In this document: positions 6,352 through 33,483 of the stretch, piece after piece
How the letters are laid out: every line of letters starts with the position of its first letter
Numbering within the stretch: the stretch's first letter is position 1
The notes under the pieces: generated by a model
The model's database searches: none
Seen by the model: the letters and a program-made list of their open reading frames with translations, nothing else
Told to the model about the DNA's origin: nothing
Origin: Gammaproteobacteria bacterium
GTDB taxonomy: Bacteria; Pseudomonadota; Gammaproteobacteria; Eutrophobiales; Eutrophobiaceae
DNA: 64,000 bases
Direction: 5' to 3'
NCBI GenBank assembly: GCA_965221455.1
Contig: OZ244890.1
Span: forward strand, 2,238,507 to 2,302,506
Made by a program: the position numbers and the translations under genes

Positions 6352-7368
6352 GTGAAGCAAATGATTTTTCGATTATCGATTATTTTAGGACTCTTCCTTG
6401 CCGTCAATGCAGGTGCAACAACTTATGAGTTAAGATCGGAATCAGACAACGTCATCGGCCAGATAGATACCGTGATTGTGGATAGCAGCACGACGCTTCC
6501 GGATATCGCGAGAAAACATGGTTTTGGTTTTTACGATATCAAATTACTGAATCCTGATACTGATACATGGATGCCTGATGATGATGAGATCGTTCAGTTA
6601 CCTTCCCGGTTCATACTACCTGATGTCCCGAGGAATGGTATTGTTTTGAACATTCCCGAAATGCGGCTGTATTACTTTCCCAAAAAGAAAAAAGGCGAAC
6701 CGTATAAGGTGATTACTTACCCTTTAGGGATCGGCAGAGAAGGATGGGCAACACCCTATAAGCAAACACATATTACCGGCAAAAAAGAGCATCCTGATTG
6801 GCGGCCCCCGAAATCGATAAGAGAAGAACACGAAAGAGCGGGAGATCCACTACCTGAAATCGTTAAGGCAGGGCCTGATAACCCTCTGGGACAACACGCG
6901 CTACGACTTGCTCTACCTTCCTATTTAATTCATGGGACGAATAAACCATGGGGTATCGGTATGCGTGTCAGTCATGGTTGTATCAGACTGTATCCTGAAG
7001 ATATCGCGGAATTATTCGACCGGGTAACGGTTGGTACGCCGGTCAATATCATCAACAAGCCGTATAAAACCGGTAAAGCTGATGGCGTATTGTATCTTGA
7101 AGTCCATCCGTCACTGACAACAGCGACACGAGACAAGTCCGGTCACGTGATTAAATCAGAGAATAACGAGAACATTGATAATTTTCCTGAAATTATTAAA
7201 ATGATTATAGCCTCGACCAATGATGGTCAGTACCTTATCGACTGGGATACCGCGAAAGCAGTGTCTGATGAACCGCAAGGGATCCCCGTCGCGATTGGAA
7301 TGCGCATTCCGGAACAAGCAGCAAGGGGAAGCCATGTTGTATATCAATCCAAACCTTTTACTGAGTAA
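6352..7368 (+). CDS. L,D-transpeptidase (YkuD/ErfK family) with LysM-like N-terminal segment
   Basis: 338 aa with signal peptide, GTG start in the ORF track. Catalytic motif HGTNKPWGIGMRVSHGCIRL. Confidence 0.8.
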   Translation: MKQMIFRLSIILGLFLAVNAGATTYELRSESDNVIGQIDTVIVDSSTTLPDIARKHGFGFYDIKLLNPDTDTWMPDDDEIVQLPSRFILPDVPRNGIVLNIPEMRLYYFPKKKKGEPYKVITYPLGIGREGWATPYKQTHITGKKEHPDWRPPKSIREEHERAGDPLPEIVKAGPDNPLGQHALRLALPSYLIHGTNKPWGIGMRVSHGCIRLYPEDIAELFDRVTVGTPVNIINKPYKTGKADGVLYLEVHPSLTTATRDKSGHVIKSENNENIDNFPEIIKMIIASTNDGQYLIDWDTAKAVSDEPQGIPVAIGMRIPEQAARGSHVVYQSKPFTE

Positions 7369-7498
7369 ACGGTTTTCAGTATCTATGCGTGAATCGATAC
7401 TGATTTATGCCAGGGTATGAGTCTCAATACATAATATTTGTAAGGATATTTGATCTGAAATTTTGACGCTTGAATAGAAATAAGAGGGAAGGAAGAAC

Positions 7499-10400: not shown

Positions 10401-11872
10401 TACAAAACCAACAAGTGGCGGAAAGGCTGAAGACAGTAAATACAGTCGAGTTATCGGAGAATGCAGACTGGTTAAAAAAATTGTTGCCACAGGAAGCAAT
10501 AGTCCAACACATCAAGAGGAGAGCAAAATATCATAAGGATTTATCATCAACAAAAATTTTCAAGGAGACTATTTATGGCGAGCGATTTATGCCTGTTCTA
10601 CTGAATGATGGCAAACTTTTTTGTGGTTTTTCTCTGGATAATTGTATTGAAATTAATCCATTGATTAAAGGAGGTAAGGACGAAAATAAAAAGATAGAAA
10701 AGCAAAAGCGCGAGGACAACGAATATTTCAATCTGTTGAAAGAATTTTTATACACGGGTTCCACTCGGCGCAAAAACAAGGCATCGGTCAGTGGAAGTTT
10801 AGATGACTACCATGGAAAGTTTGGTTATTTGTCGGTGGATAAAAGCAAAGCATTGGCGCATTTACAAAAATGCGCCAAAGAAGTATGTGATGACGAGGAT
10901 ATTAAACAAGCAGAAGCATTGGAGGAGCTACGGTATTGTGTTGAAAAGAAAAATATCAAAAACTTGATTACCGGTAAGAAATTTATTTCCCAAAGTGACT
11001 TTGACAAATTTAAATTCGATATAGACGATATCACATTACCCGCTAAAGTAGATTGGGAAAGATTAATCAATTTTCCAGTCATAGACTGCCACGGTAAAAC
11101 CACCACAATGAAAACATGTTTCAGAGAACCGGCACAAGACTTTATTCCCCAGAAAAGTTGGGATAATTTATTCGAAGAATTTTTCCATACAAATAAAATG
11201 GAAAATTCAAACCATCATAAACGAGTACGAAAAGTATATTCCTTGCCGGTTATCTCCAGTCCATCAGGTGGGTTCAGAATCAAGCGAAAAAATCCCGTGA
11301 CCGGTGATGATGTCTATCAAGTAAGTGCCATTGAAAATAGTTACGCTTGTGGTTTTTCTCAAGATTCCGAAGGCAATATTGACATGAGCGAAAAAGGGAT
11401 TACTTTTGATCCTCAATTAAAATCCAGTGCTAATGTTGCCTATCTCGGGAAATCCGGCAAACCGCATATTGTGAAAAATTCGAATGATACCGATGTAGAA
11501 AAATTTGGTTCCTGCAGACGGGTAAATTTAGAGTCTGAGCATATTATGGAATGCAAGCTGACATTGGCAGAAGGTAAGCGGATTGATATTTCTATTATGG
11601 TTGGTAAATATCTCTTTAAGGAAATATGCGAATTTTCAGATATCAATTTTGACCAACCACCATCAAATCTTCAATTAGTATTTGAAGATGAAACAAAATG
11701 TAAGAAGTTTAAGCAACTATTGACAAAGAAAAAAATACCAATCCCAAGAATAGATAAGAATAAGGTGGGATTTGCTGTTCAATCCTTACCAAAAAAAGTA
11801 GAATTATCGTATCGAACATCTCTCACTGATCCTCTTCGAGACGCTTATAAATGCGGGGATCCGGTAACGTAG
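7499..11872 (+). CDS. cas9: Type II-B CRISPR-associated endonuclease Cas9
   Basis: 1457 aa. RuvC-I IAIDMGAKNTGV (Asp11, nt 7529-7531). Arg-rich bridge helix RTQKRHQVRGNKRRKLAKRLL. RuvC-II IPVLLEQNKF. HNH GEIDHIIPQAKS...NSEANLLYCSGRGNQEKGD (His782, nt 9842-9844). RuvC-III FSHVIDAAMV. Blocks LIGNISNLQLRVLRKYFNDK, TIPPYEDQNNR, VNGTQAYLAKLL and RKVYSLPVISS match Francisella novicida Cas9 as I recall it. Strong SD GGAAGGAAG upstream. Followed by cas1-cas2-cas4. Confidence 0.95.
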   Translation: MNKIISPIAIDMGAKNTGVYLQHFEQGEDPTTSGNSAGRTIVIDGDSITWSQVNRTQKRHQVRGNKRRKLAKRLLLVILGKSYGISPTREQADFLMGLMNRRGYNRLVEDLDEKLIKQPLVAEYFVKKHEDFFKNRDTFFDNFIALSNDIEKCKALKEQLILSKKEAKKAVDDDKDGQQAFADAYDNMKSALDKQIKSEDEGHKHREEYLKNIKKDIQENSLLNPLLNDELTAECIANLIGNISNLQLRVLRKYFNDKQMQNSDKWLPQKLHKLFFRWIQGWHCKQDDEKEKRNKLLKLKQQDILKILATSAPELTIPPYEDQNNRIKETIKDKTLRLKPSALDKKMNNWLDMTQKIVKHYCLPTDDSRTTTLFSINENIEDCTHKMIQGVLDDYESRKSANILQRIFDRSKFLDPYKLRLLCSLDSLEHAKDDARKSLTLLKQHIGDNNAQAFISLCKSYYAETEIARQGLWSDNKDSLFFCCDTNPPHKSKLQHRLVGHIVCKTLSEPELESFKKDCWSEKITGARKTAKSVAKSIEEIRKKYGNEFNDVMKRIKRREYVLKSKPEEITEQQKKGWEKYEEKHKNVKTAIEDAAKVATHIADYFEHDDDKKAKYANPYSIAQLYNHLETDIGGFSKTDRYNTEENAWRNEISEEIPENKIANAVRLTKDSVRPFDGMLGRILERQAYEIARHKIVQLEGLGIGESGEMLIPVLLEQNKFKFEKSLHDIKGEKNVSTKAKDRVEEGEKRQQEQWEDKDKRIKGNKICPYTGETIGVGEIDHIIPQAKSRQHGDVVYNSEANLLYCSGRGNQEKGDNRYSFEQLNSEYLREVFGNKSPGDIKQEIRQFINNLDTDNFSGFHNLESHEQNYLRHALFLQDLDEKTFPLLNTRYRTLVNGTQAYLAKLLVRVLRGKYPNAEFKVYQMDAQEVSRVRDVLCNKYEEYKKSDKQQGAFSHVIDAAMVLATALQNQQVAERLKTVNTVELSENADWLKKLLPQEAIVQHIKRRAKYHKDLSSTKIFKETIYGERFMPVLLNDGKLFCGFSLDNCIEINPLIKGGKDENKKIEKQKREDNEYFNLLKEFLYTGSTRRKNKASVSGSLDDYHGKFGYLSVDKSKALAHLQKCAKEVCDDEDIKQAEALEELRYCVEKKNIKNLITGKKFISQSDFDKFKFDIDDITLPAKVDWERLINFPVIDCHGKTTTMKTCFREPAQDFIPQKSWDNLFEEFFHTNKMENSNHHKRVRKVYSLPVISSPSGGFRIKRKNPVTGDDVYQVSAIENSYACGFSQDSEGNIDMSEKGITFDPQLKSSANVAYLGKSGKPHIVKNSNDTDVEKFGSCRRVNLESEHIMECKLTLAEGKRIDISIMVGKYLFKEICEFSDINFDQPPSNLQLVFEDETKCKKFKQLLTKKKIPIPRIDKNKVGFAVQSLPKKVELSYRTSLTDPLRDAYKCGDPVT

Positions 11873-11900
11873 CGATTGTGTCTATGCCGACATATTCCCC

Positions 11901-12887
11901 ATGCACGCCCACCTAACCCTAAGCGAATACGGCCAGTTTGTTGGTATTCGCAGTGAATGTTTGACAGTCAAGGAAGAGGGAGCAGTCAAGGAATATCCGC
12001 TTAATCGCATCAAAAGCATCCAGATTGCACGGCGTGGGGTGAGTTTTTCTTCCGATGTCATTATTGCATGCGCCAATCGCGGTATTAAATTATTTCTCAC
12101 CGATTTCAGGAATGAAGTGGTCGCCAGCTTATCGGGCACTCAGCAACACGCTGTGGTGCGCGTGCGTCAACAGCAATTCGCCTTTATCGACCGCCTCGAT
12201 ACCGCGACTTTGTCTGCGGTGATTATTGAAGGAAAAATCAACAACCAACGAGCTGTTTTACTGTACTTCAAAAAATACCACAGTGATAAAGCCGCATACA
12301 TTGACAACACAGCAGCGCAATTAAAAATGATTGCCCAACAAATCAAAACCAAATCATGGCAAAACTTTGATCATTGGCAGGATATTTTATTGGGACTGGA
12401 GGGACAGGCAGCGCACCTTTACTGGCAATGTCTGGTCGAGACAGCCTTGATGCCCGCCGGCTTCAAGAACAGGGTAGGGAGGCAAGCACAGGATGTCGGT
12501 AACAAGGCGTTAAATTACGGTTATGCCATCCTTTCTTCCTACGTGTGGAATGCCTTGTTGAATGCCGGGCTGGAACCCTATGCCGGTATTTTCCATGCAC
12601 AACGTGCTGGCAAACCCTCTCTGGTACTGGACATGATGGAAGAATATCGTGCGTGGGCGGTAGATCGAAATATTATCAAACAACGTAACGCATTACAGGA
12701 CACCGGTGAGTTGACACCGACCATCAAGAAAAAAATCATTGCTGATATCCATAAAACCTTCGCCACCCATTACCATTATCGCAAGCGCAAGATGCGTTTG
12801 GAAAGCATACTACAACGACAAATCTATCATCTTGCCGGTACGTTCTGCGGCGACAAGCGATATAAAGCCTATCATTTCAGGTGGTAG
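11901..12887 (+). CDS. cas1: CRISPR-associated endonuclease Cas1
   Basis: 328 aa, 28 nt after the cas9 stop. Typical Cas1 N-terminal beta domain (LTVKEEGAVKEYPLNRIKSIQIARRGVSFSSDVI) and C-terminal helical domain (ALNYGYAIL, MEEYRAWAVD). Confidence 0.92.
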   Translation: MHAHLTLSEYGQFVGIRSECLTVKEEGAVKEYPLNRIKSIQIARRGVSFSSDVIIACANRGIKLFLTDFRNEVVASLSGTQQHAVVRVRQQQFAFIDRLDTATLSAVIIEGKINNQRAVLLYFKKYHSDKAAYIDNTAAQLKMIAQQIKTKSWQNFDHWQDILLGLEGQAAHLYWQCLVETALMPAGFKNRVGRQAQDVGNKALNYGYAILSSYVWNALLNAGLEPYAGIFHAQRAGKPSLVLDMMEEYRAWAVDRNIIKQRNALQDTGELTPTIKKKIIADIHKTFATHYHYRKRKMRLESILQRQIYHLAGTFCGDKRYKAYHFRW

Positions 12888-12888
12888 C

Positions 12889-13197
12889 ATGGCACAGGCG
12901 AAATTATACAATGAGGTACTGGTCAGTTATGACATCACCGATACCAAACAACGCACCAGGTTATTCAACCAACTCAAAGACATCAGCCTGATCGCAATCC
13001 AGAAATCGGTATTCTGGGGATATTTAAACAAGGCTGAGGAAAACAGTGTGAAACGCCTGTTACGAGAGCACTGTGAGAAAACCGACAAGGCTTTTATCGC
13101 ACGGGTTAAATTAGCCGAACAGATCCGGAAAGATAACGGGATTGGGTATAACAAAACCGACTTTCCGCAGAAAATCGCCGAGTATCATGTCCTATAG
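12889..13197 (+). CDS. cas2: CRISPR-associated endoribonuclease Cas2
   Basis: ATG at 12889, one nt after the cas1 TAG. 102 aa, MAQAKLYNEVLVSYDITDTKQRTRLFNQLKDISLIAIQKSVFWGYL is a Cas2 ferredoxin-fold signature. The longer track ORF (12739) overlaps cas1 and is not used. Confidence 0.85.
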   Translation: MAQAKLYNEVLVSYDITDTKQRTRLFNQLKDISLIAIQKSVFWGYLNKAEENSVKRLLREHCEKTDKAFIARVKLAEQIRKDNGIGYNKTDFPQKIAEYHVL

Positions 13198-13768
13198 TTT
13201 ACCTGTGAGTTTGCTCCGGCAATATTGTTTCTGCCCGCGCATTCCCTATTTTCAGGAGCTGCTTAATCTCAATCCACCCCGTCCGGCATGGGTCAGGCAG
13301 GGGGAGGCGTTACATCGTCAACAAGAGAAAGTATTCAGGCACAGAACCTTACAACGCTTCAATCTGGTACAGGCACGGCAAGAGTTCAATGTATTTGTTA
13401 ACGCCGCTGAATTACGTATGCACGGGTTGATTGATAGCGTGCTGATCACCCCGCATGAAATCTATCCGCTGGAATTCAAATTAAGCGGACACAAACCGAC
13501 TCGTGGACAAATCATACAACTCACCGCCTACGCGATGGCGGCCGAACACCACTATAACCTGGCTTGTCGGCATGGATTTATGTTGTTTGAGCACAAGGGT
13601 AAAACCCATCCGATTACTTTCACGGCAGAACATAAAGCACAGGTGAAGCGCATTCGTGACCGTATTTTGGATGATTTGGAGCAATCCGTTCTGCCGGATA
13701 GTTCCGCGACACAAGCGCAATGCACCCAGTGCGAATATCTCAATCATTGTAACGATAGAGGATGGTAA
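13187..13768 (+). CDS. cas4: CRISPR-associated exonuclease Cas4 (RecB-like, 4-Cys)
   Basis: Start chosen at ATG 13187 (MSYSLPVSLLRQYCFCPRIPYF), overlapping the cas2 end by 11 nt. N-terminal Cys plus C-terminal CTQCEYLNHC cluster and IYPLEFK nuclease motif. Presence of cas4 defines subtype II-B. Confidence 0.88.
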   Translation: MSYSLPVSLLRQYCFCPRIPYFQELLNLNPPRPAWVRQGEALHRQQEKVFRHRTLQRFNLVQARQEFNVFVNAAELRMHGLIDSVLITPHEIYPLEFKLSGHKPTRGQIIQLTAYAMAAEHHYNLACRHGFMLFEHKGKTHPITFTAEHKAQVKRIRDRILDDLEQSVLPDSSATQAQCTQCEYLNHCNDRGW

Positions 13769-13784
13769 AAGGATTTTGTGGGAG

Positions 13785-13810
13785 AAAATTAAAACCCCGC
13801 CAGAGCGGGG
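13785..13810 (-). terminator. Rho-independent terminator of tracrRNA
   Basis: CCCCGC-tctg-GCGGGG on the minus strand, followed by TTTTAATTTT. The plus strand has no T-run after the stem, so it is not the cas4 terminator. Confidence 0.75.
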
Positions 13811-13894
13811 CACCATGCACAATGCAGATAGGTTTATCAATCTTTATTTTAGATGATTTCAGTGCATCAATTGTTGTTTAGGATGTGTCGATGC
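13787..13894 (-). ncRNA. tracrRNA: tracrRNA (predicted)
   Basis: Plus-strand 13856-13891 (ATTTCAGTGCATCAATTGTTGTTTAGGATGTGTCGA) is an imperfect inverted copy of the array repeat. A minus-strand RNA therefore carries an anti-repeat to GUUUCAGUUGCUAGUUUGUUGAUUUAGGAUGUGUCGG: 7 bp, bulge, 2 bp, internal loop, 6 bp, bulge, 14 bp. Downstream on the minus strand are AAUCAUCUAAAAUAAAGAUUGA (resembles the F. novicida tracrRNA nexus) and a terminator hairpin. The ends are predictions. Confidence 0.8.
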
Positions 13895-14013
13895 CAAGCC
13901 AGCTTAATAAAAAAATTCGCAAAATTCAACCTTTCCCGGCATTTTCATGATTTTCGCAAAAATACCAAAAAAAATCGCTATAAAGTCAGGCAAAATCAAT
14001 ACTTCATGATAGG
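13895..14013. other. AT-rich cas-proximal flank of the CRISPR array (candidate acquisition leader)
   Basis: About 120 bp, A/T-rich with poly-A runs, directly abutting repeat 1. The opposite array end carries the degenerate repeat. Confidence 0.45.
13901..13929 (-). promoter_or_regulatory. Predicted sigma70 promoter of tracrRNA
   Basis: Minus strand TTGAAT (13924-13929), 17 nt spacer, TAAGCT (13901-13906). Predicted start about 13894, a few nt upstream of the anti-repeat. Confidence 0.55.
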
Positions 14014-17000
14014 CCGACACATCCTAAATCAACAAACTAGCAACTGAAACTGCTTATCGACTGAATAAGAAAAAAATAATCTTTCCCCGACACATCCTAA
14101 ATCAACAAACTAGCAACTGAAACTGGTTAGTCTTTTTGACGTGGACTCGTCCATTGCCTCCGACACATCCTAAATCAACAAACTAGCAACTGAAACGAGT
14201 CTGACCATCCGCCCTGCCAAACCTTCCACCTGTGCCGACACATCCTAAATCAACAAACTAGCAACTGAAACGGTCTTCGACAAGGAGCTGAACAGATTTA
14301 AGACTTCCGACACATCCTAAATCAACAAACTAGCAACTGAAACGAATCTCTGTAAGAGTAGCCGCACTCAAAAAACAAACCGACACATCCTAAATCAACA
14401 AACTAGCAACTGAAACCGTGAATATCATCATCACCCGTGATGAGTTTTTAGGACCGACACATCCTAAATCAACAAACTAGCAACTGAAACTCATGCAAGC
14501 TGGTAATCAATCAAAGTTCATGGACCGACACATCCTAAATCAACAAACTAGCAACTGAAACTTGGTTCCCACGTGTCAATCGCATCTATGATCAGCCGAC
14601 ACATCCTAAATCAACAAACTAGCAACTGAAACTTGTTTGGTGATGGCTGCAGCACTTGCCCCGACATCCGACACATCCTAAATCAACAAACTAGCAACTG
14701 AAACTCGGATCCCGGTAGTAGACTTTAACATCTCGTGTCCGACACATCCTAAATCAACAAACTAGCAACTGAAACAACACCGATCACATCACCATTAAAC
14801 TGCCCGTATCCGACACATCCTAAATCAACAAACTAGCAACTGAAACCTTGCAGACTGCTACGGAACCTGTCCCATGCGTTGCCGACACATCCTAAATCAA
14901 CAAACTAGCAACTGAAACCGCCCATGTCGAGATTGTGAGACTTGCATATAATAGCCGACACATCCTAAATCAACAAACTAGCAACTGAAACCTGGGTGAT
15001 GGATGAGGGTCACCACCTCTTACGCCGACACATCCTAAATCAACAAACTAGCAACTGAAACCACGGTCGTATATTTGCGGAGCTGAGGAAGCAGCCGACA
15101 CATCCTAAATCAACAAACTAGCAACTGAAACTTCGGGTAGATTTTCATGCAGGTTAATCATGCCCCGACACATCCTAAATCAACAAACTAGCAACTGAAA
15201 CTGCGCCTCTTGTTTTTTATCGCTCGTCGTTTATCCCGACACATCCTAAATCAACAAACTAGCAACTGAAACGTGTTCGTCCTGAAACTCTGAAAGTAAC
15301 TCAATGTCCGACACATCCTAAATCAACAAACTAGCAACTGAAACCTACTGACTATAATCGACAACCTCCCCTGTACTCCCGACACATCCTAAATCAACAA
15401 ACTAGCAACTGAAACAATTCCACTGCATTTCTAAAATCTGCTGGACTTCTCCGACACATCCTAAATCAACAAACTAGCAACTGAAACGGCTAAGTGGTTG
15501 GCATTGGGTTAAGCGTTTTGCACCGACACATCCTAAATCAACAAACTAGCAACTGAAACCAGCTACTACAATGCCAGGCAACCTGACCTTTAACCGACAC
15601 ATCCTAAATCAACAAACTAGCAACTGAAACCACGAAATGCCTCGCAAACTCTGCACATCTCTCAAACCGACACATCCTAAATCAACAAACTAGCAACTGA
15701 AACGTTGATGTTATTGTCTTAACGTCCATTAAATGAGTCCCGACACATCCTAAATCAACAAACTAGCAACTGAAACTTGTCATTGATTAAAGCCGTCTTC
15801 CCCCTGTGAGGCCCGACACATCCTAAATCAACAAACTAGCAACTGAAACCTGAACATCTCTTCATAACTTATCAACTTGCCTTCCGACACATCCTAAATC
15901 AACAAACTAGCAACTGAAACTGAGGTTTTTGTTGTCATGTTTTTGACTCAGCACCGACACATCCTAAATCAACAAACTAGCAACTGAAACAGAGGGTTAC
16001 CAATTCCCCCAAGGCCGCCCAAAACCGACACATCCTAAATCAACAAACTAGCAACTGAAACTGTAAACCCTTGAAAAAATTAAGTTAAATTTAAATCCGA
16101 CACATCCTAAATCAACAAACTAGCAACTGAAACTAATCGATTCGATATGTGTTTTGGTGAAAGTTGTGCCCGACACATCCTAAATCAACAAACTAGCAAC
16201 TGAAACCATGAACGTTCACTCTCAGAGGTCACCGGTTAGCACCCGACACATCCTAAATCAACAAACTAGCAACTGAAACAAACGGCCGTACAAGAAGCGC
16301 ATGTACTTGCCTGCCGACACATCCTAAATCAACAAACTAGCAACTGAAACTCACGAATATGACATCAGTCGTTACGGCGGTCGGTACCGACACATCCTAA
16401 ATCAACAAACTAGCAACTGAAACCAAAAATCCTGTTTGTCCGCACCTTATCCAAGTTTCCGACACATCCTAAATCAACAAACTAGCAACTGAAACTTCGC
16501 CGCCGGGATTTACTCAGATGATGATTACGTCCGACACATCCTAAATCAACAAACTAGCAACTGAAACACCGCCAGAAGAAAATCATGCTGGCGACAATTA
16601 CGCCGACACATCCTAAATCAACAAACTAGCAACTGAAACCAAAATATGCCGGATCGCGCATGAACCGCGCTGCACCGACACATCCTAAATCAACAAACTA
16701 GCAACTGAAACTTGAAAAAGAGCCGCCAGACAGCGAGATCCTATCTCCCGACACATCCTAAATCAACAAACTAGCAACTGAAACAACAAAGGCACTGTAA
16801 CCCTGTCCATTCGCCGACACCGACACATCCTAAATCAACAAACTAGCAACTGAAACTGAGTTTGATACCACAAGTCATTATGTCTAAGGCACCGACACAT
16901 CCTAAATCAACAAACTAGCAACTGAAACCAAGATACTTATGATTAGCAACGGTTGTATAGTATCCGACACATCCTAAATCAACAAACTAGCAACTGAAAC

Positions 17001-19016
17001 ACGGCAGAAAGCGTTTTAAAGTCGCCAGTACCAGTCCGACACATCCTAAATCAACAAACTAGCAACTGAAACTGGTCTAAAACTGCACGAAGCAATCTTA
17101 CATAGGTACCGACACATCCTAAATCAACAAACTAGCAACTGAAACGCAAATAAACAATGACTAAAAGTACCAGAAGGTAGCCGACACATCCTAAATCAAC
17201 AAACTAGCAACTGAAACAGGCGTTGAATTTGCTTTTCTAGTCGGTATTGAGGCCGACACATCCTAAATCAACAAACTAGCAACTGAAACGATGAGGCACA
17301 TTATCTGTACAATATCCTCCCCAGTCCGACACATCCTAAATCAACAAACTAGCAACTGAAACCTGACTACGCGGAGAAAGGCGCACAGATAGTAGTCCGA
17401 CACATCCTAAATCAACAAACTAGCAACTGAAACACAGTTTATACAAACGCAGAATACTGGGAGAATCACCCGACACATCCTAAATCAACAAACTAGCAAC
17501 TGAAACTGAACTTTTTTCATATCTATCACCTTTTTTAACTCCGACACATCCTAAATCAACAAACTAGCAACTGAAACTGAACCTTTTTCATCATCATCAC
17601 CTATTTTTAATTCCGACACATCCTAAATCAACAAACTAGCAACTGAAACGTGTGCCTTTCGTCTGTACCTGCCAGAAACTCGCCCGACACATCCTAAATC
17701 AACAAACTAGCAACTGAAACTCGAGCTGGCATCACACAAGTAAGTTCTTCAATGAGCCGACACATCCTAAATCAACAAACTAGCAACTGAAACAATGTGG
17801 TTAGGCTGGCTGATGGGAGCTATAAGACCGACACATCCTAAATCAACAAACTAGCAACTGAAACAAACTCGAAGCGTGGGCATTGCTTGCGCCGCCGAAC
17901 CGACACATCCTAAATCAACAAACTAGCAACTGAAACAGAGAATCCTCCCAGTACCCCGCTTAGAGGCAAGCCGACACATCCTAAATCAACAAACTAGCAA
18001 CTGAAACTGGTCTAACACTGCACGAAGCAATCTTACATAGGTCCGACACATCCTAAATCAACAAACTAGCAACTGAAACTGGAAGTGCTTCACAGCTTCA
18101 CAGGCGAGAGGGTTTCCCGACACATCCTAAATCAACAAACTAGCAACTGAAACTCCTAGTGGCGGAGCAATTAGATACCGACAACCGCTCCGACACATCC
18201 TAAATCAACAAACTAGCAACTGAAACTCCGCTGTTGTTGATCCGGTTGTGACTTCTGCACGGCCGACACATCCTAAATCAACAAACTAGCAACTGAAACA
18301 CAGCGACTGAGCCGGGGGTTTCAGTGCCTTGGCGCCGACACATCCTAAATCAACAAACTAGCAACTGAAACTTTAGGTCGATATAAGAGTATTGAAAATC
18401 TCGAAACCGACACATCCTAAATCAACAAACTAGCAACTGAAACTTTTAAGTTTAAATTAATCCCTATAACACCAACCACCGACACATCCTAAATCAACAA
18501 ACTAGCAACTGAAACTCTCCATACTCGGTAGTGTCATCTTGCATTTCGTCCGACACATCCTAAATCAACAAACTAGCAACTGAAACTTTTATAGTTCTGC
18601 TCAAAATAAGCCGGATCACGCCCGACACATCCTAAATCAACAAACTAGCAACTGAAACTTCACTTTATTCATCAAGCCTTCAAAAGTAACCCCCGACACA
18701 TCCTAAATCAACAAACTAGCAACTGAAACGGTCAAAGGCATCACCGCCGCGTGAGAGTTTACCCCCCGACACATCCTAAATCAACAAACTAGCAACTGAA
18801 ACTGAAATTGCCCCCGATGCTTTGGTTGTAGAAGCTCCCGACACATCCTAAATCAACAAACTAGCAACTGAAACCGGGACAAATAAACCAATGCACATCT
18901 TAACAGTACCGACACATCCTAAATCAACAAACTAGCAACTGAAACCCAGTCACTCATCATGAGCCTGTTCATAAATCTGCCGACACATCCTAAATCAACA
19001 AACTAGCAACTGAAAC
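14014..19016 (-). CRISPR. CRISPR array, 70 identical 37-nt repeats with 69 internal spacers of 33-38 nt (type II-B repeat)
   Basis: Plus-strand repeat CCGACACATCCTAAATCAACAAACTAGCAACTGAAAC. Repeat starts were tallied by hand from 14014 to 18980 with unit period 70-75 bp, and I noticed no repeat variants. The minus-strand form GTTTCAGTTGC... matches the 5-prime end of the F. novicida crRNA repeat and pairs with the predicted tracrRNA, hence minus strand. Confidence 0.97.
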
Positions 19017-19050
19017 GCGGACACTTGACATCTATTCAAGTTAAAAAAGA

Positions 19051-19087
19051 GCGACATATCTGAAATAAAAAAAGCCCCGCATCAGCG
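19051..19087. repeat. Degenerate terminal CRISPR repeat
   Basis: GCGACATATCTGAAATAAAAAAA matches 17 of the first 23 repeat positions, and the last 14 positions (GCAACTGAAAC part) are lost. It is separated from repeat 70 by a 34-nt spacer (19017-19050) and overlaps the terminator hairpin. Confidence 0.7.
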
Positions 19088-19098
19088 GGGCTTTTTTT
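19065..19098. terminator. Bidirectional Rho-independent terminator
   Basis: AAAAAAA-GCCCCGC-atca-GCGGGGC-TTTTTTT. A symmetric A/T run on both sides lets it terminate the minus-strand lipoprotein gene and any plus-strand read-out of the array. Confidence 0.8.
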
Positions 19099-19190
19099 AC
19101 TAATGACAAATCTCAACCTAACAAATCAGCAAGGTTTCCCATGTGTATGTCATGTAAGGTTTGTATGTACACATACTGCAAGGAAATACA

Positions 19191-26052: not shown

Positions 26053-26637
26053 ATGAAAAAACTTGAACGTAAGGATCTTTGGTCACTTGAGGAATATGCG
26101 GAAAAGCGTAACGACTTCAAAAGTAAAGTGATTGCATATAAAAAGAATCGTCAATTAGTCGTCGGTCCCAATGCAACATTCTATCTTGAAGACAGGCTTA
26201 CGATTCAATATCAAATTCAGGAAATGCTCCGTATTGAACGTATTTTTGAAGCTGCAGCAATTGATGAAGAATTAACCGCTTATAATCCCCTGATTCCCGA
26301 CGGCAGTAACTGGAAAGCCACGCTAATGATAGAGTTTGCTGACGAGGCGGAAAGAAGAATTGCCCTGGCAAAAATGAAAAATCTTGAAGATACTGTCTGG
26401 ATGAAGGTTGATGGACATGAGAAAATAGTGCCTTTTGCAAACGAGGATATGCAAAGAAGTAACGATGAGAAGACTTCAGCAGTGCATTTTCTTCGGTTCG
26501 AGCTGGACAAGGAGATGATTGTATCCTTGAAAAGCGGAGTCAATTTATCAGCGGGGATAACGCATCCGGCATATCACCACATCGTTAATGTCGTTAATAC
26601 TGAAGTGAAGGAATCGTTACTGGCGGACCTGGATTAA
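26053..26637 (+). CDS. DUF3501 family protein
   Basis: Start at ATG 26053 (MKKLERKDLWSLEEY), 5 nt after the Fe-S gene stop. Rubrerythrin / Fe-S protein / DUF3501 is a recurrent triad as I recall it. The family call is from memory. Confidence 0.6.
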   Translation: MKKLERKDLWSLEEYAEKRNDFKSKVIAYKKNRQLVVGPNATFYLEDRLTIQYQIQEMLRIERIFEAAAIDEELTAYNPLIPDGSNWKATLMIEFADEAERRIALAKMKNLEDTVWMKVDGHEKIVPFANEDMQRSNDEKTSAVHFLRFELDKEMIVSLKSGVNLSAGITHPAYHHIVNVVNTEVKESLLADLD

Positions 26638-26654
26638 ATAGCGATGCTCTACTA

Positions 26655-26850
26655 ATTCCCCTCCCCCTTACCAGGGGGAGAGCTTTTGATACGGGACACT
26701 CTTTTACTGTCACTACACAATGCAGGTTGTAGTGGTCCAGTATGGCATGTGATAGTAATAGGTAGACTATAATTTGGACATGAGGAAGCATCAAATGCTG
26801 ACAAAAACACGTAAACACACCACCCCACTGGTGCTTGTGCAACAAGCACC
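26655..26850 (+). mobile_element. IS3-family left-end remnant with truncated orfA N-terminus
   Basis: G/C palindrome CCCTCCCCCTTACCAGGGGGAG, TTTTACTGTCACT (26702) and TGTAGTGGTC (26728-26737) recur at 30952/30988 in front of a recognisable IS3 orfA. The short reading frame here, MLTKTRKHTTP, parallels MTKERKHFTP of that orfA. Confidence 0.55.
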
Positions 26851-26851
26851 A

Positions 26852-27095
26852 GCACCGCAGCACCGCAGCACCGCAGCACCGCAGCACCGCAGCACCGCAG
26901 CACCGCAGCACCGCAGCACCGCAGCACCGCAGCACCGCAGCACCGCAGCACCGCAGCACCGCAGCACCGCAGCACCGCAGCACCGCAGCACCGCAGCACC
27001 GCAGCACCGCAGCACCGCAGCACCGCAGCACCGCAGCACCGCAGCACCGCAGCACCGCAGCACCGCAGCACCGCAGCACCGCAGCACCGCAGCAC
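26852..27095. repeat. Perfect octanucleotide microsatellite (GCACCGCA) x30 plus a partial unit
   Basis: 30 uninterrupted 8-bp units at 26852-27091 plus GCAC. All six frames are open across it, which explains the pile of repetitive ORFs in the track. It ends 58 nt before the ATG of the large secreted protein. Confidence 0.97.
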
Positions 27096-27153
27096 TAGCG
27101 CACTAACGCAGACCGCGCCACTACCAGGAACCTGGTCAGGGGCATGGCGCGGG

Positions 27154-30100
27154 ATGACGGCAGTCATGGCCGCCGTTGCCCTGCTGGCGGTATTGGCAAG
27201 CCCGGCGGCACGGGCGCAATCCGATGACTGGGGCGAATGGAGTACGGCGAATATCACCGACAAGAACCAGACACGCACCTGTAATGCCGGGACGGGCAAC
27301 ACGTGTATGAATGCCTACGGGGGCGGCACCACCAACCACGGCGGCACCGAGACCCGTCCGAGTCTGACCTTTTGGAATAACTATCTCCTCAACGGCCCGG
27401 CTGGGCATACCAATGCGACGGAAAGAAGAGGCGGGGTTGACGTCACAGGCGTAACCATCTCCCGCAACAACAGCGATGGTCGACTACAAGTCCAGAGTGT
27501 TATTTCTGGGAGCGGCTCCATTGACCCCCCATCTCTATTCATCACAACCGGGCAGGCGACCCCGAGCACCGGCACACTCTTACGGTTCGGCGAACAAAGT
27601 ATTATAGACCTGAAGTCCGGACTGTCCCGTCCGAACCTCACATGGGTGCCTATCTCGGGGGATGGCAGGGTGATTTACCGTCCGTCCGTCGGCACCGAGA
27701 TGGTCTTATTGGAGACTTTATGTACCGCCAGCGGTGATTTAAGGGTGCGCTCGGGGCAAACCAGCGACACCGAACAAACCGTACAAGCCAACTCGTTGCT
27801 GTGCAATATCGGGGCGAGTGCCTCGGCAATCACCAGGCAAGCCATCGGTGAACTGAGTGCCACCGATAACTATATTTATACTAATAACTGGGGCGACTGG
27901 AGTGCGGGCAATATCAACGACAAGAACCAGACGCGCACCTGTAATGCCGGGACGGGCAACACGTGTGTCAATTTCTACACTAGAGGCACCACCAACCACG
28001 GGGGCGCCGAGGCCCGTCCGAGTGAGACCTTTTGGGAGAACTATCTCCTCAACGGCCCGGCCGGGTATACCAATGCGACGGAGGCAAACGGTGTAGACAT
28101 CACAAGCATGACATTCGCCCGCAACAACGACGATGGTCGGCTGGGATTAAGGGCGATCGGAGTCTCCGGCATCTCAAACTATTTACCTATTGAATACATC
28201 ACTACCGAGCAGGTGACCCCAAGTACCGGAATACTGTTCACGGTAACAGGCGCTGGCTTGAATATAACCCTCAAGTCCGGCCTGACCCGTCCGAACCCCT
28301 CATGGACCGCTATCCCGGGGCCGGGCGTCTTGTTTTACCGACCGTCCGCCAACAACGCGGTGGTCTTGGTGGACACTTCATGTACCGCCACCGGTGATTT
28401 AAGGGTCCGCTCGGGGACCACGTCCGGCACCGAACGCACCGTACAAGCCAACTCGCTGCTGTGCAATACCGGAGCGAGTGCCGCAGCCATCACCAGGCAA
28501 GCCATCGGTGAACTGAGTGCCGCCGACAACTATATTTATTCCGCAGATGGCTGGGACGACTGGAGTGCGGCCAATATCACCGACAAGAACCAGACACGCA
28601 CCTGTAATGCCGGGACGGGCAACACTTGTCCCAATGCCTACGGCAGCACCACCACCAACCACGGCGGCACCGAGACCCGTCCGAGTGAGACCTTCTGGCG
28701 CAACTATCTCGTCAACGGCCCGGCCGGGCATACCAATGCGACAAACTACGGTAGTGATGACATCACAAGCGTGGTACTCACCCGCAATAACAGCGATGGT
28801 CGGCTGCAATTAACGGGCATTGATACCACTGGCGGCACAGTCACGCTTACAACCCCTCGATTCATCACAACTGGGCGAGAGACCCCGAATAGCGGAACAC
28901 TGTTCGTGACAGGCCCTACCAATATAGTCCTGAAGTCCAACCTGTCCCGTCCGAACCTCTCATGGACCGCTATCCCGGGATCGGGAATCGTGTTTTACCG
29001 ACCATCCGGCAGCAACAGGGTGCGCTTATTGGACAGTTCATGTACCGCCAGCGGTGATTTAAGAGTGCGCTCGGGGACCACGACCAACACCGAACAAACC
29101 GCACAAGCCAACTCGCCGCTGTGCAATATCGGAGCGAGTGTCGCAGCCATCACCAGGCAAGTCATCGGTGAACTGAGTGCCACCGACAACTATATTTATG
29201 CGGTGCCCGCGACATTAGGTGCCATCCAGGACAGTACCCCCAACACCCCGGCCAGGGTCGATGATATCTTGACCGCCGGTGCGCTGAGCCATCCCACGTT
29301 GACCGTCAATATCAACGCCCATCAATGGCAACGCTGTACCACTCAAGACTGTAGCAACGCAACAGATATCAGCCAGAATGGCACAGCAGCGACCTACGCG
29401 GTGCAAGCGGCGGACCATGCTCACTGGCTGCGGGTGCGTGTCACTCAGGGCGGGGATTTCAACGACACCCTGTTCTCCAATAGCGTACAGGTTGACCGTG
29501 GCGGTGTGCTCGGTCCCATCACCGGCAATGCCAGAGCAGGCGGCACGCTGACGGCGGGCGCGGTCACCGACGCGGACGCCTCACCGAATACCGATGTCGG
29601 TACCATTACCTGGCAATGGCAGACAGCGACCGTCTCGGCGGGTCCGTTTACCGCCGCACCGGGGACGAATAATACCGCCACGTACACGATTGCATCAGAC
29701 CAATCACAGATAGGCACGTGGTTGCGCGTGATGGCGAGTTATCCGAATGCGGGAGGCGATAGCCTGACGTCCGACCCGGTAGTGGTTGCGGGTGTGCGGG
29801 TGTCGCCGACCGCGCTGAATGTCACCGAAGGGGGTGACAGCACCAGCTATACCCTGATGCTGGGCAGCCGACCGACAGGGCCGGTAACGCTGACCGTGAC
29901 CAATCCCGATGCCACTGCGGTGACCCTCAGTGCCACCTCACTGACGTTTACCACAGACAACTGGAACAGTGCCCGGACGGTGACGGTGAGTAGTGTTGAG
30001 GATACGGATACAGACCACGAGACCGTGCAACTCACGCATACGGCGACAAGTACGGACCCTGGCTACAATGGGGCTGCTGTGACGATAGACTCCGTGGCTG

Positions 30101-30789
30101 TGACCTTGAATGATAACGACGGCCCGGGCGTGTCCGTGAGTTCCACGACGCTGACAGTCCATGAGCGTGGTGGGACTGGCATGTATACGCTGCGCCTGAA
30201 TACCCCACCGACGGAAGCAGTGACGATTAGCGTGACCCATTCCAATGCCGCTGCTGCGACGGTGAGTCCCACCTCACTGATGTTTAGCGCCACCGACTGG
30301 AATACCGCCAAAACCATCACCGTGACGGGAGTGGAAGACGCTGATACAGACGACGAGACCGTGCAACTCACGCATACGGTGACCAGTACCGACACCACCT
30401 ATCGTACCGTCACGGCGGCCACCGTAACCGTGACGGTGACGGAGATGGCGGCGGTGAGTCTTGATGTGGATGGCAGCGGTGGTGATCCCAACCAGAGTGA
30501 CGGACTCTTGCTGGGCCGCTACCTGTTTGGTATTCGTGATGCGGCGGGCTTGCTTGATACCATTCCGGGGAGTCCCTCGGCCAGTGCGGTCACGGCGAAT
30601 ATTGCGGGAGCTTTCGCCAGCGGTCGTCTTGATGTGGATGGCAGCGGCGGCGATCCCAACCAGAGTGACGGACTCTTGCTGGGCCGCTATCTGTTTGGTA
30701 TTCGTGATGAGGTGGGCCTGCTTGATACCATTCCGGGCAATCCCTCGTTCAATGCGGTAAGGACGAATATCGAGGCACTTTTGCGGTAG
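27154..30789 (+). CDS. Large secreted repeat protein (adhesin-like): 3 x ~220-aa Cys-containing modules, Ig-like region, 2 Calx-beta-like domains, 2 dockerin/EF-hand-like Ca-binding repeats
   Basis: 1211 aa. Sec signal MTAVMAAVALLAVLASPAARA/Q. Three modules start with W-G-[ED]-W-S...DKNQTRTCNAGTGNTC. LTFTTDNWNSARTVTVSSVEDTDTDHETVQLTH type domains occur twice. C-terminal LDVDGSGGDPNQSDGLLLGRYLFGIRD occurs twice. GC content is far above the flanks. Confidence 0.85.
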   Translation: MTAVMAAVALLAVLASPAARAQSDDWGEWSTANITDKNQTRTCNAGTGNTCMNAYGGGTTNHGGTETRPSLTFWNNYLLNGPAGHTNATERRGGVDVTGVTISRNNSDGRLQVQSVISGSGSIDPPSLFITTGQATPSTGTLLRFGEQSIIDLKSGLSRPNLTWVPISGDGRVIYRPSVGTEMVLLETLCTASGDLRVRSGQTSDTEQTVQANSLLCNIGASASAITRQAIGELSATDNYIYTNNWGDWSAGNINDKNQTRTCNAGTGNTCVNFYTRGTTNHGGAEARPSETFWENYLLNGPAGYTNATEANGVDITSMTFARNNDDGRLGLRAIGVSGISNYLPIEYITTEQVTPSTGILFTVTGAGLNITLKSGLTRPNPSWTAIPGPGVLFYRPSANNAVVLVDTSCTATGDLRVRSGTTSGTERTVQANSLLCNTGASAAAITRQAIGELSAADNYIYSADGWDDWSAANITDKNQTRTCNAGTGNTCPNAYGSTTTNHGGTETRPSETFWRNYLVNGPAGHTNATNYGSDDITSVVLTRNNSDGRLQLTGIDTTGGTVTLTTPRFITTGRETPNSGTLFVTGPTNIVLKSNLSRPNLSWTAIPGSGIVFYRPSGSNRVRLLDSSCTASGDLRVRSGTTTNTEQTAQANSPLCNIGASVAAITRQVIGELSATDNYIYAVPATLGAIQDSTPNTPARVDDILTAGALSHPTLTVNINAHQWQRCTTQDCSNATDISQNGTAATYAVQAADHAHWLRVRVTQGGDFNDTLFSNSVQVDRGGVLGPITGNARAGGTLTAGAVTDADASPNTDVGTITWQWQTATVSAGPFTAAPGTNNTATYTIASDQSQIGTWLRVMASYPNAGGDSLTSDPVVVAGVRVSPTALNVTEGGDSTSYTLMLGSRPTGPVTLTVTNPDATAVTLSATSLTFTTDNWNSARTVTVSSVEDTDTDHETVQLTHTATSTDPGYNGAAVTIDSVAVTLNDNDGPGVSVSSTTLTVHERGGTGMYTLRLNTPPTEAVTISVTHSNAAAATVSPTSLMFSATDWNTAKTITVTGVEDADTDDETVQLTHTVTSTDTTYRTVTAATVTVTVTEMAAVSLDVDGSGGDPNQSDGLLLGRYLFGIRDAAGLLDTIPGSPSASAVTANIAGAFASGRLDVDGSGGDPNQSDGLLLGRYLFGIRDEVGLLDTIPGNPSFNAVRTNIEALLR
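27223..29199 (+). repeat. Three tandem ~660-bp intragenic repeats
   Basis: Units start at 27223, 27883 and 28543. Long identical nucleotide runs such as GACAAGAACCAGAC(A/G)CGCACCTGTAATGCCGGGACGGGCAACAC appear in each. Confidence 0.9.
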
Positions 30790-30840
30790 TGGCTGCATGG
30801 ACAGCATAGACAGGCAGGTCACTGCACAGGCTTTTCTTGC

Positions 30841-31206
30841 CACTTGTGCATGGCTAAACTCGGGAAAGCTGAGGCACAGGCACTAACAACCCCCTCCCCC
30901 CTGCGGGGTACTCCCCCTTGGCAGGGGGAGAGCTTTTAGGGCGGGAAATGCTTTTACTGTCACTCAACTTTGTCGGCTAACTCACTATGTAGTGGTCTAA
31001 TAAATCCGTACCAGGTGATAGGTGATGAAATCACATACTCATGGAGGTACGGCTCATGACAAAAGAACGAAAACACTTTACACCTGAGTTTAAACAAGAT
31101 GCTGCCTTGTCTGGTAGTAGACCAGGACTACAGCATCAAAGAAGCCTGTCCAGTTGAGCAATTAAGCACGCACTATCGTCAAAGTGACGGCGATGATTGT
31201 CAGTAG
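30841..31206 (+). pseudogene. IS3-family left end with frameshifted orfA
   Basis: Repeat block with G/C palindrome, TTTTACTGTCACT, TGTAGTGGTC (30988-30997), then ATG 31056 MTKERKHFTPEFKQDAA. A frameshift precedes LVVDQDYSIKEAC, with an early stop at 31204-31206. Confidence 0.7.
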
Positions 31207-31625
31207 CCAGCAGGGCTTATCGCAACAGTCACCTCGTCATTCCTGCGGAAGCAGGAATCCAGGTGCTGATTGCAACTCGTCTGAATTGCTTCGCTAAAGC
31301 TCTCCCCCTGCCAAGGGGGAGGGGGTTGCAGGGGGGAGGGAATGACGACTTACAACATCACCACAAACAATACAGACATTACCGCAACCAGCTTCCAGCA
31401 TTCCATGTGACCGCCTGAAAGCATCAACCCCTGCCGTCATTGCGAGCAAAGCGAAGCAATCCAGTAAACTTTAAAGATAAGTCAGGATACCTTGAAATAT
31501 TTGAAGATATGCAAAATGCCATTGCCAGAGAAAAATAAATTAAAGCTGACTCCCGCAAAAAGAAACCTGCCCTGATTGAAAAACACAATCCGGAATGGAA
31601 CGATTTATATGAAGATATTGTTTAA

Positions 31626-32105
<480 letters not shown>

Positions 32106-32515
32106 AAACAACCTATCGACTGGTACGGAAATACCTGACCACTTTACCAGGGGGGAGTACCCCGCAGGGGGAGGGGGTTGCAGGGGGGAGGGAATGACGA
32201 CTTACAACATCACCACAAACAATACAGACATTACCGCAACCAGCTTCCAGCATTCCATGTGACCGCCTGAAAGCATCAACCCCTGCCGTCATTGCGAGCA
32301 AAGCGAAGCAATCCAGTAAACTTTAAAGATAAGTCAGGATACCTTGAAATATTTGAAGATATGCAAAATGCCATTGCCAGAGAAAAATAAATTAAAGCTG
32401 ACTCCCGCAAAAAGAAACCTGCCCTGATTGAAAAACACAATCCGGAATGGAACAATTTATATGAAGATATTGTTTAATCTGGATTGCTTCGCTTTGCTCG
32501 CAATGACGGTGCTGA

Positions 32516-32956
<441 letters not shown>

Positions 32957-33269
32957 AAACAACCTATCGACTGGTACGGAAATACCGGACCACTTTAGGG
33001 TGGTTGTTTTTCAAGCTCCGCGCTTCCTGCACCACTACCCCGTCATTCCCGCGCAAGCGGGAATCTATAAGACGCAAAAAAAATACACAACTTCTGCGAG
33101 GACATATTTTTCGCGGGAATGACGATGTTCAGTCATTTTATTAAGCGGCTTTTCTTTCCACCCATGTGCACTACTAAACTCAGGAAAGCGTTAGGCAGGC
33201 ACCAGGCCTTCGTTTTTCTGGATCCCCGCTTTCGCGGGAATGACGATTTTACTGTCACTCAATGCAGGT

Positions 33270-33383
33270 GAGGAATGGCGACAATTTTACAATGCTAAAC
33301 GACCACACAGTGCCCTGGAATATCAAACCCGGAACAAACCCCGAATACGATGCGGGAGCGACATCAGGATAATCATTTTATGA
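33270..33383 (+). pseudogene. C-terminal fragment of another rve-type transposase
   Basis: EEWRQFYNAKRPHSALEYQT is the conserved tail of IS3/IS481-type integrases. It is preceded by TTTTACTGTCACTCAATGCAGGT and has no upstream ORF. Confidence 0.6.
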
Positions 33384-33483
33384 GATCACAACCCGGTGAG
33401 TGGTTCAGGTTTTTGGGGACAGGTCATAGTCATTACCCGCTACCTGTTATATGCTCACAGCATGTATGAAAATCCTGTTTTAG

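Follow-up and report, generated by a model that had tools for sequence, protein, structure and literature searches.

The 64,000-nt stretch of contig OZ244890.1 analysed here (the window) contains a GC-rich island between the DUF3501 and parE genes. This island belongs to a family of adhesin-like genes restricted to its lineage and is not a one-off foreign gene. Its body open reading frame (ORF) encodes a 1211-aa protein (27154-30789, plus strand) and is preceded by a leader carrying a perfect array of the octamer CAGCACCG, which was overlooked in the preliminary description of the stretch. The array consisted of 30.75 units over 246 bp (26850-27095; Tandem Repeats Finder, TRF, 100% matches, no indels) and was placed between the leader start codon and the signal peptide. 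As judged from the sequences, the family is probably a set of phase-variable surface proteins, in which slipped-strand changes in tract length would turn each paralog on or off through its reading frame.

The anatomy and frame logic of the leader were read directly from the plus strand. A diverged IS3 left inverted repeat (TGTAGTGGTC...ATAGGT) with the 5' untranslated region occupied 26728-26794, as defined by global alignment to 30988-31055. Inspection of the sequence gave a TATAAT hexamer at 26768-26773 and, 7 nt upstream of the leader ATG at 26795, a Shine-Dalgarno-like GAGGAAG (26782-26788). The leader ORF (26795-27106, 103 codons) encoded MLTKTRKHTTPLVLVQQAPAP(QHRSTAAP)n..ALAH followed by a stop, and was out of frame with the body. 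Its first ~18 codons aligned with the start of IS3 orfA (MTKERKHFTPEFKQDAA). The array began 55 nt past the ATG, and a perfect 10-bp palindrome, CTGGTGCTTG-TGCAA-CAAGCACCAG (26828-26852), lay directly 5' of it and overlapped the first unit. All three frames were open through the array. Immediately beyond it (27096-27106), TAG (27096-27098) and TAA (27104-27106) closed the two frames that do not enter the gene body, and the third frame passed through the array as ..TSALTQTAPLPGTWSGAWRG-MTAVMAAVALLAVLASPAARA|QS.. into the 1211-aa body. The window copy was out of frame, and the loss of one unit or the gain of two would fuse leader and body.

The same arrangement was found at all six loci for which DNA was at hand, namely the window, three further contigs (L001, L002 and L085, one locus each) and both genes of L086. 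The octamer CAGCACCG was present in 30.75 copies in the window and 35.75 copies in L002, both out of frame. The heptamer ACGCACC was repeated 14.3 times in L085 and 7.3 times in L086 gene 2, both out of frame, and 7.3 times in L001 (1521-aa ORF) and 2.3 times in L086 gene 1, both in frame. The two genes of L086 lay in tandem (1678-11176). The arrays were 100% pure at every locus. Past the tract the body frame was open in 6/6 loci, and the other two frames stopped within 1-56 nt of the tract end. These loci showed two of the features that characterize a contingency locus: a perfect repeat with a unit indivisible by 3, inside the frame downstream of the start codon, with one frame leading to a full-length product and two ending early. 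The three unit types, GCACCAC, GCACCACA and GCACCGCA, were evidently related, and neither unit length, 7 or 8, is a multiple of three. Tract length differed among the paralogous loci, at 0, 30.75 and 35.75 units for the octamer and 2.3, 7.3, 7.3 and 14.3 units for the heptamer. Over linkers of 80-150 codons the body frame stayed free of stops, also where a REP (repetitive extragenic palindromic) element was inserted, whereas the other frames contained 2-3 stops. One REP type was inserted in the leader linker of some paralogs with the frame kept, and was translated as PSFTRRGAPQGRGGRF.

The annotated paralogs showed the same features at the protein level. The MLTK.. start was common to P0002, P0005, P0007, P0008, P0010, P0012, P0017, P0020, P0031, P0035, P0036, P0041 and P0045, and at least 10 paralogs of the 2.5-Mb genome were annotated from this start. 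P0017 was an in-frame read-through of about 33 units of CAGCACCA, and P0010 contained a decayed tract, also in frame. P0007 was a tract-less form, MLTKPRKHTTPLVLVQQAP|LPGTWQGAWRGMT.. (also rendered MLTKPRKHTTPLVLVQQAP|LPGTWQGAWRGMTAVMAAV..), which places the tract within the n-region of an extended signal peptide. The palindrome was retained in L002 (6143-6169) and in the third leader type, with 10-12 bp and 3 double-sided compensatory changes, and the peptide encoded there differed between leader variants (PLVLVQQAP vs AGACCASAS). These sequences (n=3) are suggestive of conservation by compensation, and the palindrome could seed or anchor slippage. In L085 (4430-4700) and L086 (1150-1400), an older, decayed leader copy with a mutated start codon (GAGGCCGACAAAATCACGTAAACAC..) was located upstream of the heptamer-type leader and continued into post-tract and linker sequence. 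These decayed copies indicated that leader cassettes were stacked or swapped by recombination, in agreement with P0003 and P0043, whose bodies were >90% identical while their leader types were different.

In the proposed mechanism, translation would start at the leader ATG with its ribosome-binding site (MLTK.RK..), run through the 7- or 8-nt tract, meet stops in two frames and reach the signal peptide and body in the third. Replication slippage would add or remove whole units, and since neither 7 nor 8 is divisible by 3, every unit gained or lost would shift the body into or out of frame with the start codon. Paralogs would switch independently and reversibly, so that a population would display changing combinations of surface proteins; the window copy, at 30.75 units, would currently be off. 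In this proposal we infer a useful rate of slippage, initiation at the leader ATG and exposure of the protein at the surface. Several points weigh against it. The differences in tract length come from a comparison of paralogous loci, and short-read contigs break at the array. No RNA run was found to contain the 1211-aa gene, and a promoter scan of the leader upstream region gave no full sigma-70 match on the plus strand, so the promoter is a putative one. A leader of 30 units puts about 115 residues before the hydrophobic core of the signal peptide (~250 in other leader types), and an extension of this length ahead of the core is atypical of proteins exported by Sec. In most copies the start assigned by gene-prediction programs is the signal-peptide Met, and two conserved ATGs (MT.VMAAV) could be an independent start. 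Open frames are likelier by chance in DNA of 60-70% GC. A tally of on and off states from annotated N-termini is also biased, as L001 was in frame and yet annotated from an internal Met.

The multicopy status of the gene was evident from the searches. A protein search returned ~20 paralogs of 64-89% identity, all on one 2,504,188-bp contig, and two further paralogs from a related metagenome, and a cluster look-up raised the count to at least 26 full-length members. The family made up ~4% of the 2.5-Mb genome, and the short-read depth over the 1211-aa gene was tens of times that of its flanks. Family genes were located at differing sites on four metagenome contigs (L001, L002, L085 and L086): by recR, by a KAP NTPase gene and in tandem. 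Body ORFs of 1000-3200 aa were intact in >20 copies, including out-of-frame ones; truncated or split members were P0018, P0021, P0022 and the downstream ORF of L085. Outside the family almost nothing was found. A scan with the family alignment detected no relative in 185,579 species genomes, and neither the signal-peptide-junction pattern nor the C-terminal-repeat pattern matched any metagenome contig among 241 million records of the Joint Genome Institute (JGI). HMMER, run over all 1.84 billion representative proteins, revealed no relative of the head module outside the family, and exact look-ups of the window proteins and several paralogs matched no record. The remote matches of the protein search covered only the Calx-beta-like stalk repeats, and their contigs had 62-66% GC, which is compatible with an old high-GC origin for the stalk module but does not prove it. 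As a separate observation, the same assembly series contained a 66% GC complete genome (L084, ERZ25070844; 2,482,130-bp circular contig, 2935x), whose 1946-aa fn3/fn3_6 protein has only stalk-type repeats in common with the family; this organism may be co-resident in the same type of sample.

The 1211-aa protein (27154-30789) consisted of a signal peptide, heads, Ig-like repeats, a stalk and dockerin-like repeats, all encoded on the plus strand. The signal peptide (27154-27216) was predicted to be cleaved after ARA. Three head modules of ~220 aa came next (about 27217-29214), and each opened with a W..WS..NITDKNQTRTC motif. The Ig-like repeats numbered two (about 29206-29793), as did the stalk repeats of Calx-beta/fn3_6-like type (about 29794-30447) and the final 56-aa dockerin-like repeats (30458-30770), which had the motif DVDGSGGDPNQSDGLLLGRYLFG. 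Sequence searches against Pfam, NCBIfam and PDB gave weak fn3_6 and dockerin-like signals only. The dockerin-like repeats weakly matched the PDB dockerin 1ohz_B (E=0.14) and had no match in Pfam even at E<=5. The AlphaFold2 model of head module 1 reached a pLDDT (predicted local distance difference test) of only 62.5, and a Foldseek search of this model against PDB showed no match below E=0.5. Across the family the number of head modules varied from one to three and that of stalk repeats from two to nine. Identity between paralogs climbed along the protein, from 62-71% in the heads to 89% in the centre and 96% at the C-terminus, which on this analysis is the usual pattern of variable adhesins with a conserved anchor.

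The composition of the island was clearly deviant. In 400-nt windows the GC content was 0.44 at 26.4-26.8 kb, 0.55-0.69 across 26.8-30.8 kb (58-60% overall) and 0.44-0.49 past 31 kb, and the remaining 1-kb bins of the window ranged from 0.37 to 0.47, with none above 0.47. The GC content at third codon positions (GC3) of the 1211-aa ORF was 0.673, compared with 0.401+-0.037 in 33 background ORFs (z=7.3), which showed that the anomaly was not merely a matter of amino-acid content. GC at second positions (GC2) was likewise elevated (z=4.9), and the protein was enriched in T, A and G and depleted in K and E. Antisense ORFs of 60-216 aa were dense in the GC-rich stretch only, an expected by-product of high GC. 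The preliminary description, which reported a ~60% GC island against ~40% flanks, long antisense ORFs confined to it and a single cargo gene for a secreted multi-repeat protein, was borne out on these points, and the deviation in codon usage that it had proposed to check was present. The GC contrast was repeated at L001 and L002, the loci measured (0.60 vs 0.45-0.46). GC-biased gene conversion as the only cause of the high GC was disfavoured, as GC3 is lowest (0.59 vs 0.67-0.69 in the other parts of the gene) at the C-terminus, where homogenisation is strongest. Both an ancient foreign ancestor and internal causes may account for the high GC of the family.

The segment 26655-33426 is an insertion relative to the sister genomes. 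The genes for rubrerythrin, a CCG-domain protein, DUF3501, parE and parC were contiguous in the closest relative and at least 12 others, identified by a ParE-based scan with one genome per species, and the gap between DUF3501 and parE was 110-400 bp in at least 13 relatives vs 6.9 kb in the window. The closest relative (L003) is a metagenome-assembled genome with a ParE identity of 90%; the host itself is an uncultured gammaproteobacterium. Alignment to the uninterrupted 110-bp intergenic region of L003 placed the joints at 26654/26655 and 33426/33427, with a TA dinucleotide beside each joint. Together with the synteny in at least 13 relatives and the short-read contigs, this defined an insertion of 6.77 kb between the DUF3501 stop codon (26635-26637) and the parE start (33517). 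Short-read contigs from three runs linked the leader to unique DNA on the left (25500 to 26816/26837, with 0-1 mismatch) and ran from 33383 into the unique right flank. Both outer junctions were thus spanned by independent contigs, and the structure is not the chimeric assembly that the preliminary description had proposed to exclude. The comparison of this interval across relatives, proposed there as well, confirmed the absence of the segment from the site.

The borders of the island contained related sequences. The left block (26655-26727) was composed of a terminator-like GC palindrome (26661-26680), AGCTTTT and CGGGA..CTTTTACTGTCACT..CAATGCAGGT, and represented a diverged, partial copy of a module (M) from the 3' flank of the family genes. 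Positions 26661-26714 and 30911-30964 were collinear and 83% identical over 54 nt, a score reached by 0/300 shuffles. TTTTACTGTCACT was exact at 26702 and 30952 and TGTAGTGGTC at 26728 and 30988, with nearly equal spacing, and ~67 nt past TGTAGTGGTC both borders contained a ribosome-binding site and an ATG that opened similar first codons. In a global alignment of 26728-26851 with 30988-31112, 76/110 positions were identical (z=5.6; 1/1000 shuffles as good). A match to TTTTACCGTCACT at 23465 lay inside an unrelated gene and was taken as chance. The core of the left block was also found beside family genes on other contigs, on the downstream side in L001 and L086 and on the upstream side in L002. 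The right block noted previously (30890-30975) was part of the conserved family 3' flank (module M1, 30790-30987), which contained GC palindromes and GCGGGAAATGCTTTTACTGTCACTCAACTTTG. Window 29884-30979 was 94% identical to L001 10442-11534, and this flank also aligned with L086, where it follows gene 1. In the L086 tandem pair the flank module of gene 1 preceded the leader of gene 2, and for this reason the direct repeats are best read as a spacer between family genes, a relic of tandem or recombinational origin, rather than as transposon arms. The homology of the first ~18 leader codons to the orfA start was significant, with the motif in all leader types, including the most divergent paralogs, and the IS3 left end seems to have been recruited early as the translation start of the family. 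Local alignment of the IS3 left end with the upstream regions of L001 was not significant; the IS3-like repeat was therefore recognisable only in the window copy, whereas the orfA-like start was family-wide.

To the right of the gene, a defective IS3-family derivative occupied 30988-32997 (plus strand), with its left repeat at 30988, an orfA start at 31056, REP-like filler, a C-terminal rve fragment of orfB and a right repeat ending at ~32146. The derivative measured ~1.16 kb, and its 3' 833 bp, right repeat included, were tandemly duplicated (31314-32146 = 32166-32997, 99.2%). Its membership of the IS3 family (30988-32146) was shown by terminal inverted repeats, the orfA start, rve/rve_3 orfB fragments and blastn similarity to transposase genes annotated as IS3. 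The terminal repeats TGTAGTGGTC.../...GACCACTTTA (33 nt, 79% complementary) and the orfA start MTKERKHFTPEFK are shared with the family. Unlike typical members, the element was internally deleted, REP-filled and non-autonomous: orfA was broken after 33 codons, the C-terminal ~130-157 aa of orfB were left, and no flanking 3-4-bp target duplication was visible. The left-hand copy also differed from the IS3 family, as it was reduced to the repeat and ~18 orfA codons (~120 nt) and serves as the leader of the cargo gene. The derivative recurred in L001 and L002 (98-99.8% identity; 97.8-99.8% in the alignment with L001), in the opposite orientation and at other positions of the 3' flank, and its short-read depth was about 15-60 times that of its flanks; it is a recent, recurrent secondary insertion into the family 3' flank. 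The flank continued beyond it (32998-33246, plus strand), with 32998-33173 98.3% identical to L001 11578-11753 in the same orientation and a second M module at about 33150-33262. It was followed by the 3' fragment of a second insertion sequence (33247-33426, plus strand), which encoded an rve_3 C-terminus (33264-33383, Pfam) and ended at the right joint. The first 23 nt of this fragment were TTTTACTGTCACTCAATGCAGGT, and on sequence grounds the TTTTACTGTCACT motif is probably a relic of its transposase gene. REP-like palindromes (CCGTCATTGCGAGCAAAGCGAAGCAATCCAG, GTCATTCCCGCGCAAGCGGGAATC) were observed at 31434-31464, 31627-31657, 32286-32316, 32479-32509, 33038-33068, 33219-33245 and 41-71, and REP-like families filled the interior of the IS3 derivative and the family flanks.

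The leader could act on expression in another way. The tract might switch or tune expression without any fusion of leader and body, the leader being a separate upstream ORF and the body starting at ATG 27154 or 27166. Tract length would then set the position of the leader stop and work through coupling, re-initiation, Rho polarity or attenuation, as in Streptococcus gallolyticus pil1, or the tract would be a spacer that tunes transcription in the manner of a rheostat, the mode of Haemophilus hmwA; precedents exist for both modes (PMC3894217, PMC3309571). The canonical signal peptide MT.VMAAVALLA..ARA|Q, conserved in all paralogs, the end of the leader ORF 48 nt before ATG 27154 and the fact that very long n-regions are atypical of Sec substrates are all in keeping with a separate leader. 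However, ATG 27154 was not preceded by an AGGAGG-type Shine-Dalgarno sequence, the tract lay downstream of the leader start codon, neither in nor upstream of a promoter, and the 58 nt between tract and ATG 27154 contained no AT-rich promoter element. An attenuator hairpin was considered and rejected: the RNA folds of the leader and of the tract-to-start region were no more stable than shuffles, and no terminator-like or unusually stable structure was found between tract and body start (z=-0.35). In three leader types no stop interrupted the body frame between tract and signal peptide, a distance of 20-150 codons, although a leader ORF separate from the body would not need this openness. Both off-frames stopped right past the tract. 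A separate leader is therefore considered unlikely, though it deserves more credit than neutral decay, in which a non-coding leader would contain tracts that are selfish or slippage-prone junk, the majority of copies would be pseudogenes and there would be no regulated switching. Decay would agree with the 4/6 loci out of frame, with the truncated or split members named above and with the REP and insertion-sequence debris throughout the region. About two thirds out of frame is, however, also the expectation for a random three-state switch, and the large bodies remained intact in out-of-frame copies too. Purity up to 36 units requires ongoing slippage, both unit lengths are indivisible by 3, and stops occurred in exactly the two non-body frames at 6/6 loci. 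Neutral decay thus appears improbable, and frame-dependent switching remains the preferred explanation of the leader.

The origin of the window copy was described previously in different terms, as a single acquired high-GC gene carried as cargo between two direct IS3 copies. Its absence from the site in relatives, a GC3 7 standard deviations over background, IS3-like left ends on both sides in the same orientation and the 62-66% GC of the contigs that encode distant relatives of the stalk repeats would all suit a composite transposon. The same compositional anomaly, absence and adjoining insertion-sequence remnants are shared with classical genomic islands, and deviant composition with absence from the site was indeed found here. 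In contrast to both, the segment had no integrase, tRNA site, intact IS pair, matching target duplication or identifiable donor, and in place of a donor-derived gene in single or low copy number there were at least 20-26 paralogs in the same genome, others being present in related strains. The cargo was thus highly multicopy within its own genome, unlike that of a classical island. The blocks at the two borders, reported as copies of one IS3 left end, are real, collinear and in the same orientation, but the right block belongs to the family 3' flank and not to IS3. IS3-like ends do exist on both sides, yet they differ greatly in age: the left one is a relic of ~120 nt that forms the gene's own start and is about 69% identical to the right one, which is 98-99% identical to its own copies and lies elsewhere and inverted in L001 and L002. 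The outer IS ends also missed the boundaries, since 26655 lies 73 nt outside the left inverted repeat and 33426 is the end of another insertion-sequence fragment, and no IS3-type target-site duplication was visible. Mobilisation by IS3 is accordingly not upheld, and neither is a lone foreign gene. The donor clade that a protein search was to reveal did not emerge from the genomes, JGI records and proteins surveyed above, where the remote matches were generic stalk repeats and the head module was confined to the family. The composite-transposon model, with its fresh transfer, is largely refuted and hardly credible. Of horizontal acquisition in the broader sense, the insertion relative to sister genomes, the foreign-like codon and amino-acid composition and the adjoining IS3 debris stand; a donor and a lone gene do not. 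With at least 20-26 paralogs in the same genome, the proximate source of the window copy was most likely the genome itself. A family unit, together with its flanking spacer module and insertion-sequence debris, would have entered the gap between DUF3501 and parE through insertion or recombination, with no fresh foreign transfer.

Elsewhere in the window, a type II-B-like CRISPR-Cas locus was located at 7499-19100. It encoded a Cas9 of 1457 aa with a Csx12 alpha-helical lobe and HNH, followed by cas1 (11901-12887), cas2 (within 12739-13197) and cas4 (13142-13768). The array, at about 14.0-19.0 kb, contained ~70 copies of the 37-nt repeat CCGACACATCCTAAATCAACAAACTAGCAACTGAAAC with ~35-nt spacers, and accounted for the strong GC/AT skew and the lack of ORFs in this region.

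Phase-variable surface-protein families are a textbook trait of host-adapted pathogens such as Neisseria, Haemophilus, Helicobacter and Mycoplasma. The present host, an uncultured gammaproteobacterium, is known only from metagenome-assembled genomes and enrichment-type samples, and a family of >20 members is unusual for it. Unusual, too, are the length of the units (7-8 nt) and of the tracts (up to ~290 bp) and the position of the tracts in an extended signal-peptide leader that seems to descend from the start of an insertion-sequence gene. If the proposed switching is true, it would extend the logic of contingency loci to environmental lineages, provide a case of an insertion-sequence fragment recruited as a gene expression module, and offer a natural system for the evolution of repeat-unit length avoiding multiples of three. 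Tentatively, the IS3 left end, with its inverted repeat, 5' untranslated region and first ~18 orfA codons, may have become a domesticated, portable module of promoter and start, within which the hairpin-flanked hypermutable tract of 7- or 8-nt units grew, so that this "switch leader" would now recombine among >25 paralogs. Such a leader would give combinatorial, stochastic surface display in a non-pathogenic gammaproteobacterium, on the scale of classical pathogens. Evasion of phages or grazers is plausible as the selective force, given a CRISPR array of 70 spacers 8 kb away. The results also bear on annotation, because most copies are called from an internal Met, so that the putative switch is missed, and island finders based on GC would call each copy a separate foreign island.

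The closest likeness was found with known repeat-controlled surface proteins. In Neisseria Opa, CTCTT repeats lie in the coding region of the signal peptide (PMC4534519). Opa and the window family are both multicopy surface-protein families with variable exposed regions, in which each copy switches on its own through slipped-strand changes in a short repeat with a unit indivisible by 3, placed after the start codon and before the signal peptide ends (PMC4534519), although this switching is only proposed here. The Opa unit is 5 nt, whereas the units here are 7-8 nt and the tracts reach 36 units (about 290 bp), lengthening the leader by up to ~95 residues. Opa proteins are beta-barrels of ~250 aa in ~11 copies, compared with repeat proteins of 1000-3200 aa in at least 20 copies here. 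There is no sequence homology between the two, and the present host is an uncultured gammaproteobacterium and no known pathogen. In Haemophilus influenzae, 7-bp repeats, or 8-bp repeats in biogroup aegyptius, are located upstream of hmwA (PMC3309571). HMW1/HMW2 are likewise large secreted adhesins with 7- or 8-bp arrays at the 5' end and a unit length that varies by lineage (PMC3309571). The hmwA repeats, however, were described in the putative promoter region, acting on the level of expression, whereas the window array lies downstream of the start codon and is followed by frame-closing stops; the HMW proteins are not homologous to the window family. A less close likeness was seen with pil1 of S. 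gallolyticus, in which a leader peptide with GCAGA repeats is combined with attenuation (PMC3894217). A repeat tract in a short upstream ORF is common to both, and in pil1 its length controls the downstream adhesin operon (PMC3894217). The pil1 system requires a premature terminator hairpin between leader and genes, whereas none was found in the window leader, and, unlike in pil1, the leader frame here can run directly into the body. Compared with Opa, hmwA and pil1, the window family is different in the length of its unit and tract, its IS-derived leader, the size of its proteins, its copy number, its host and its compositional contrast.

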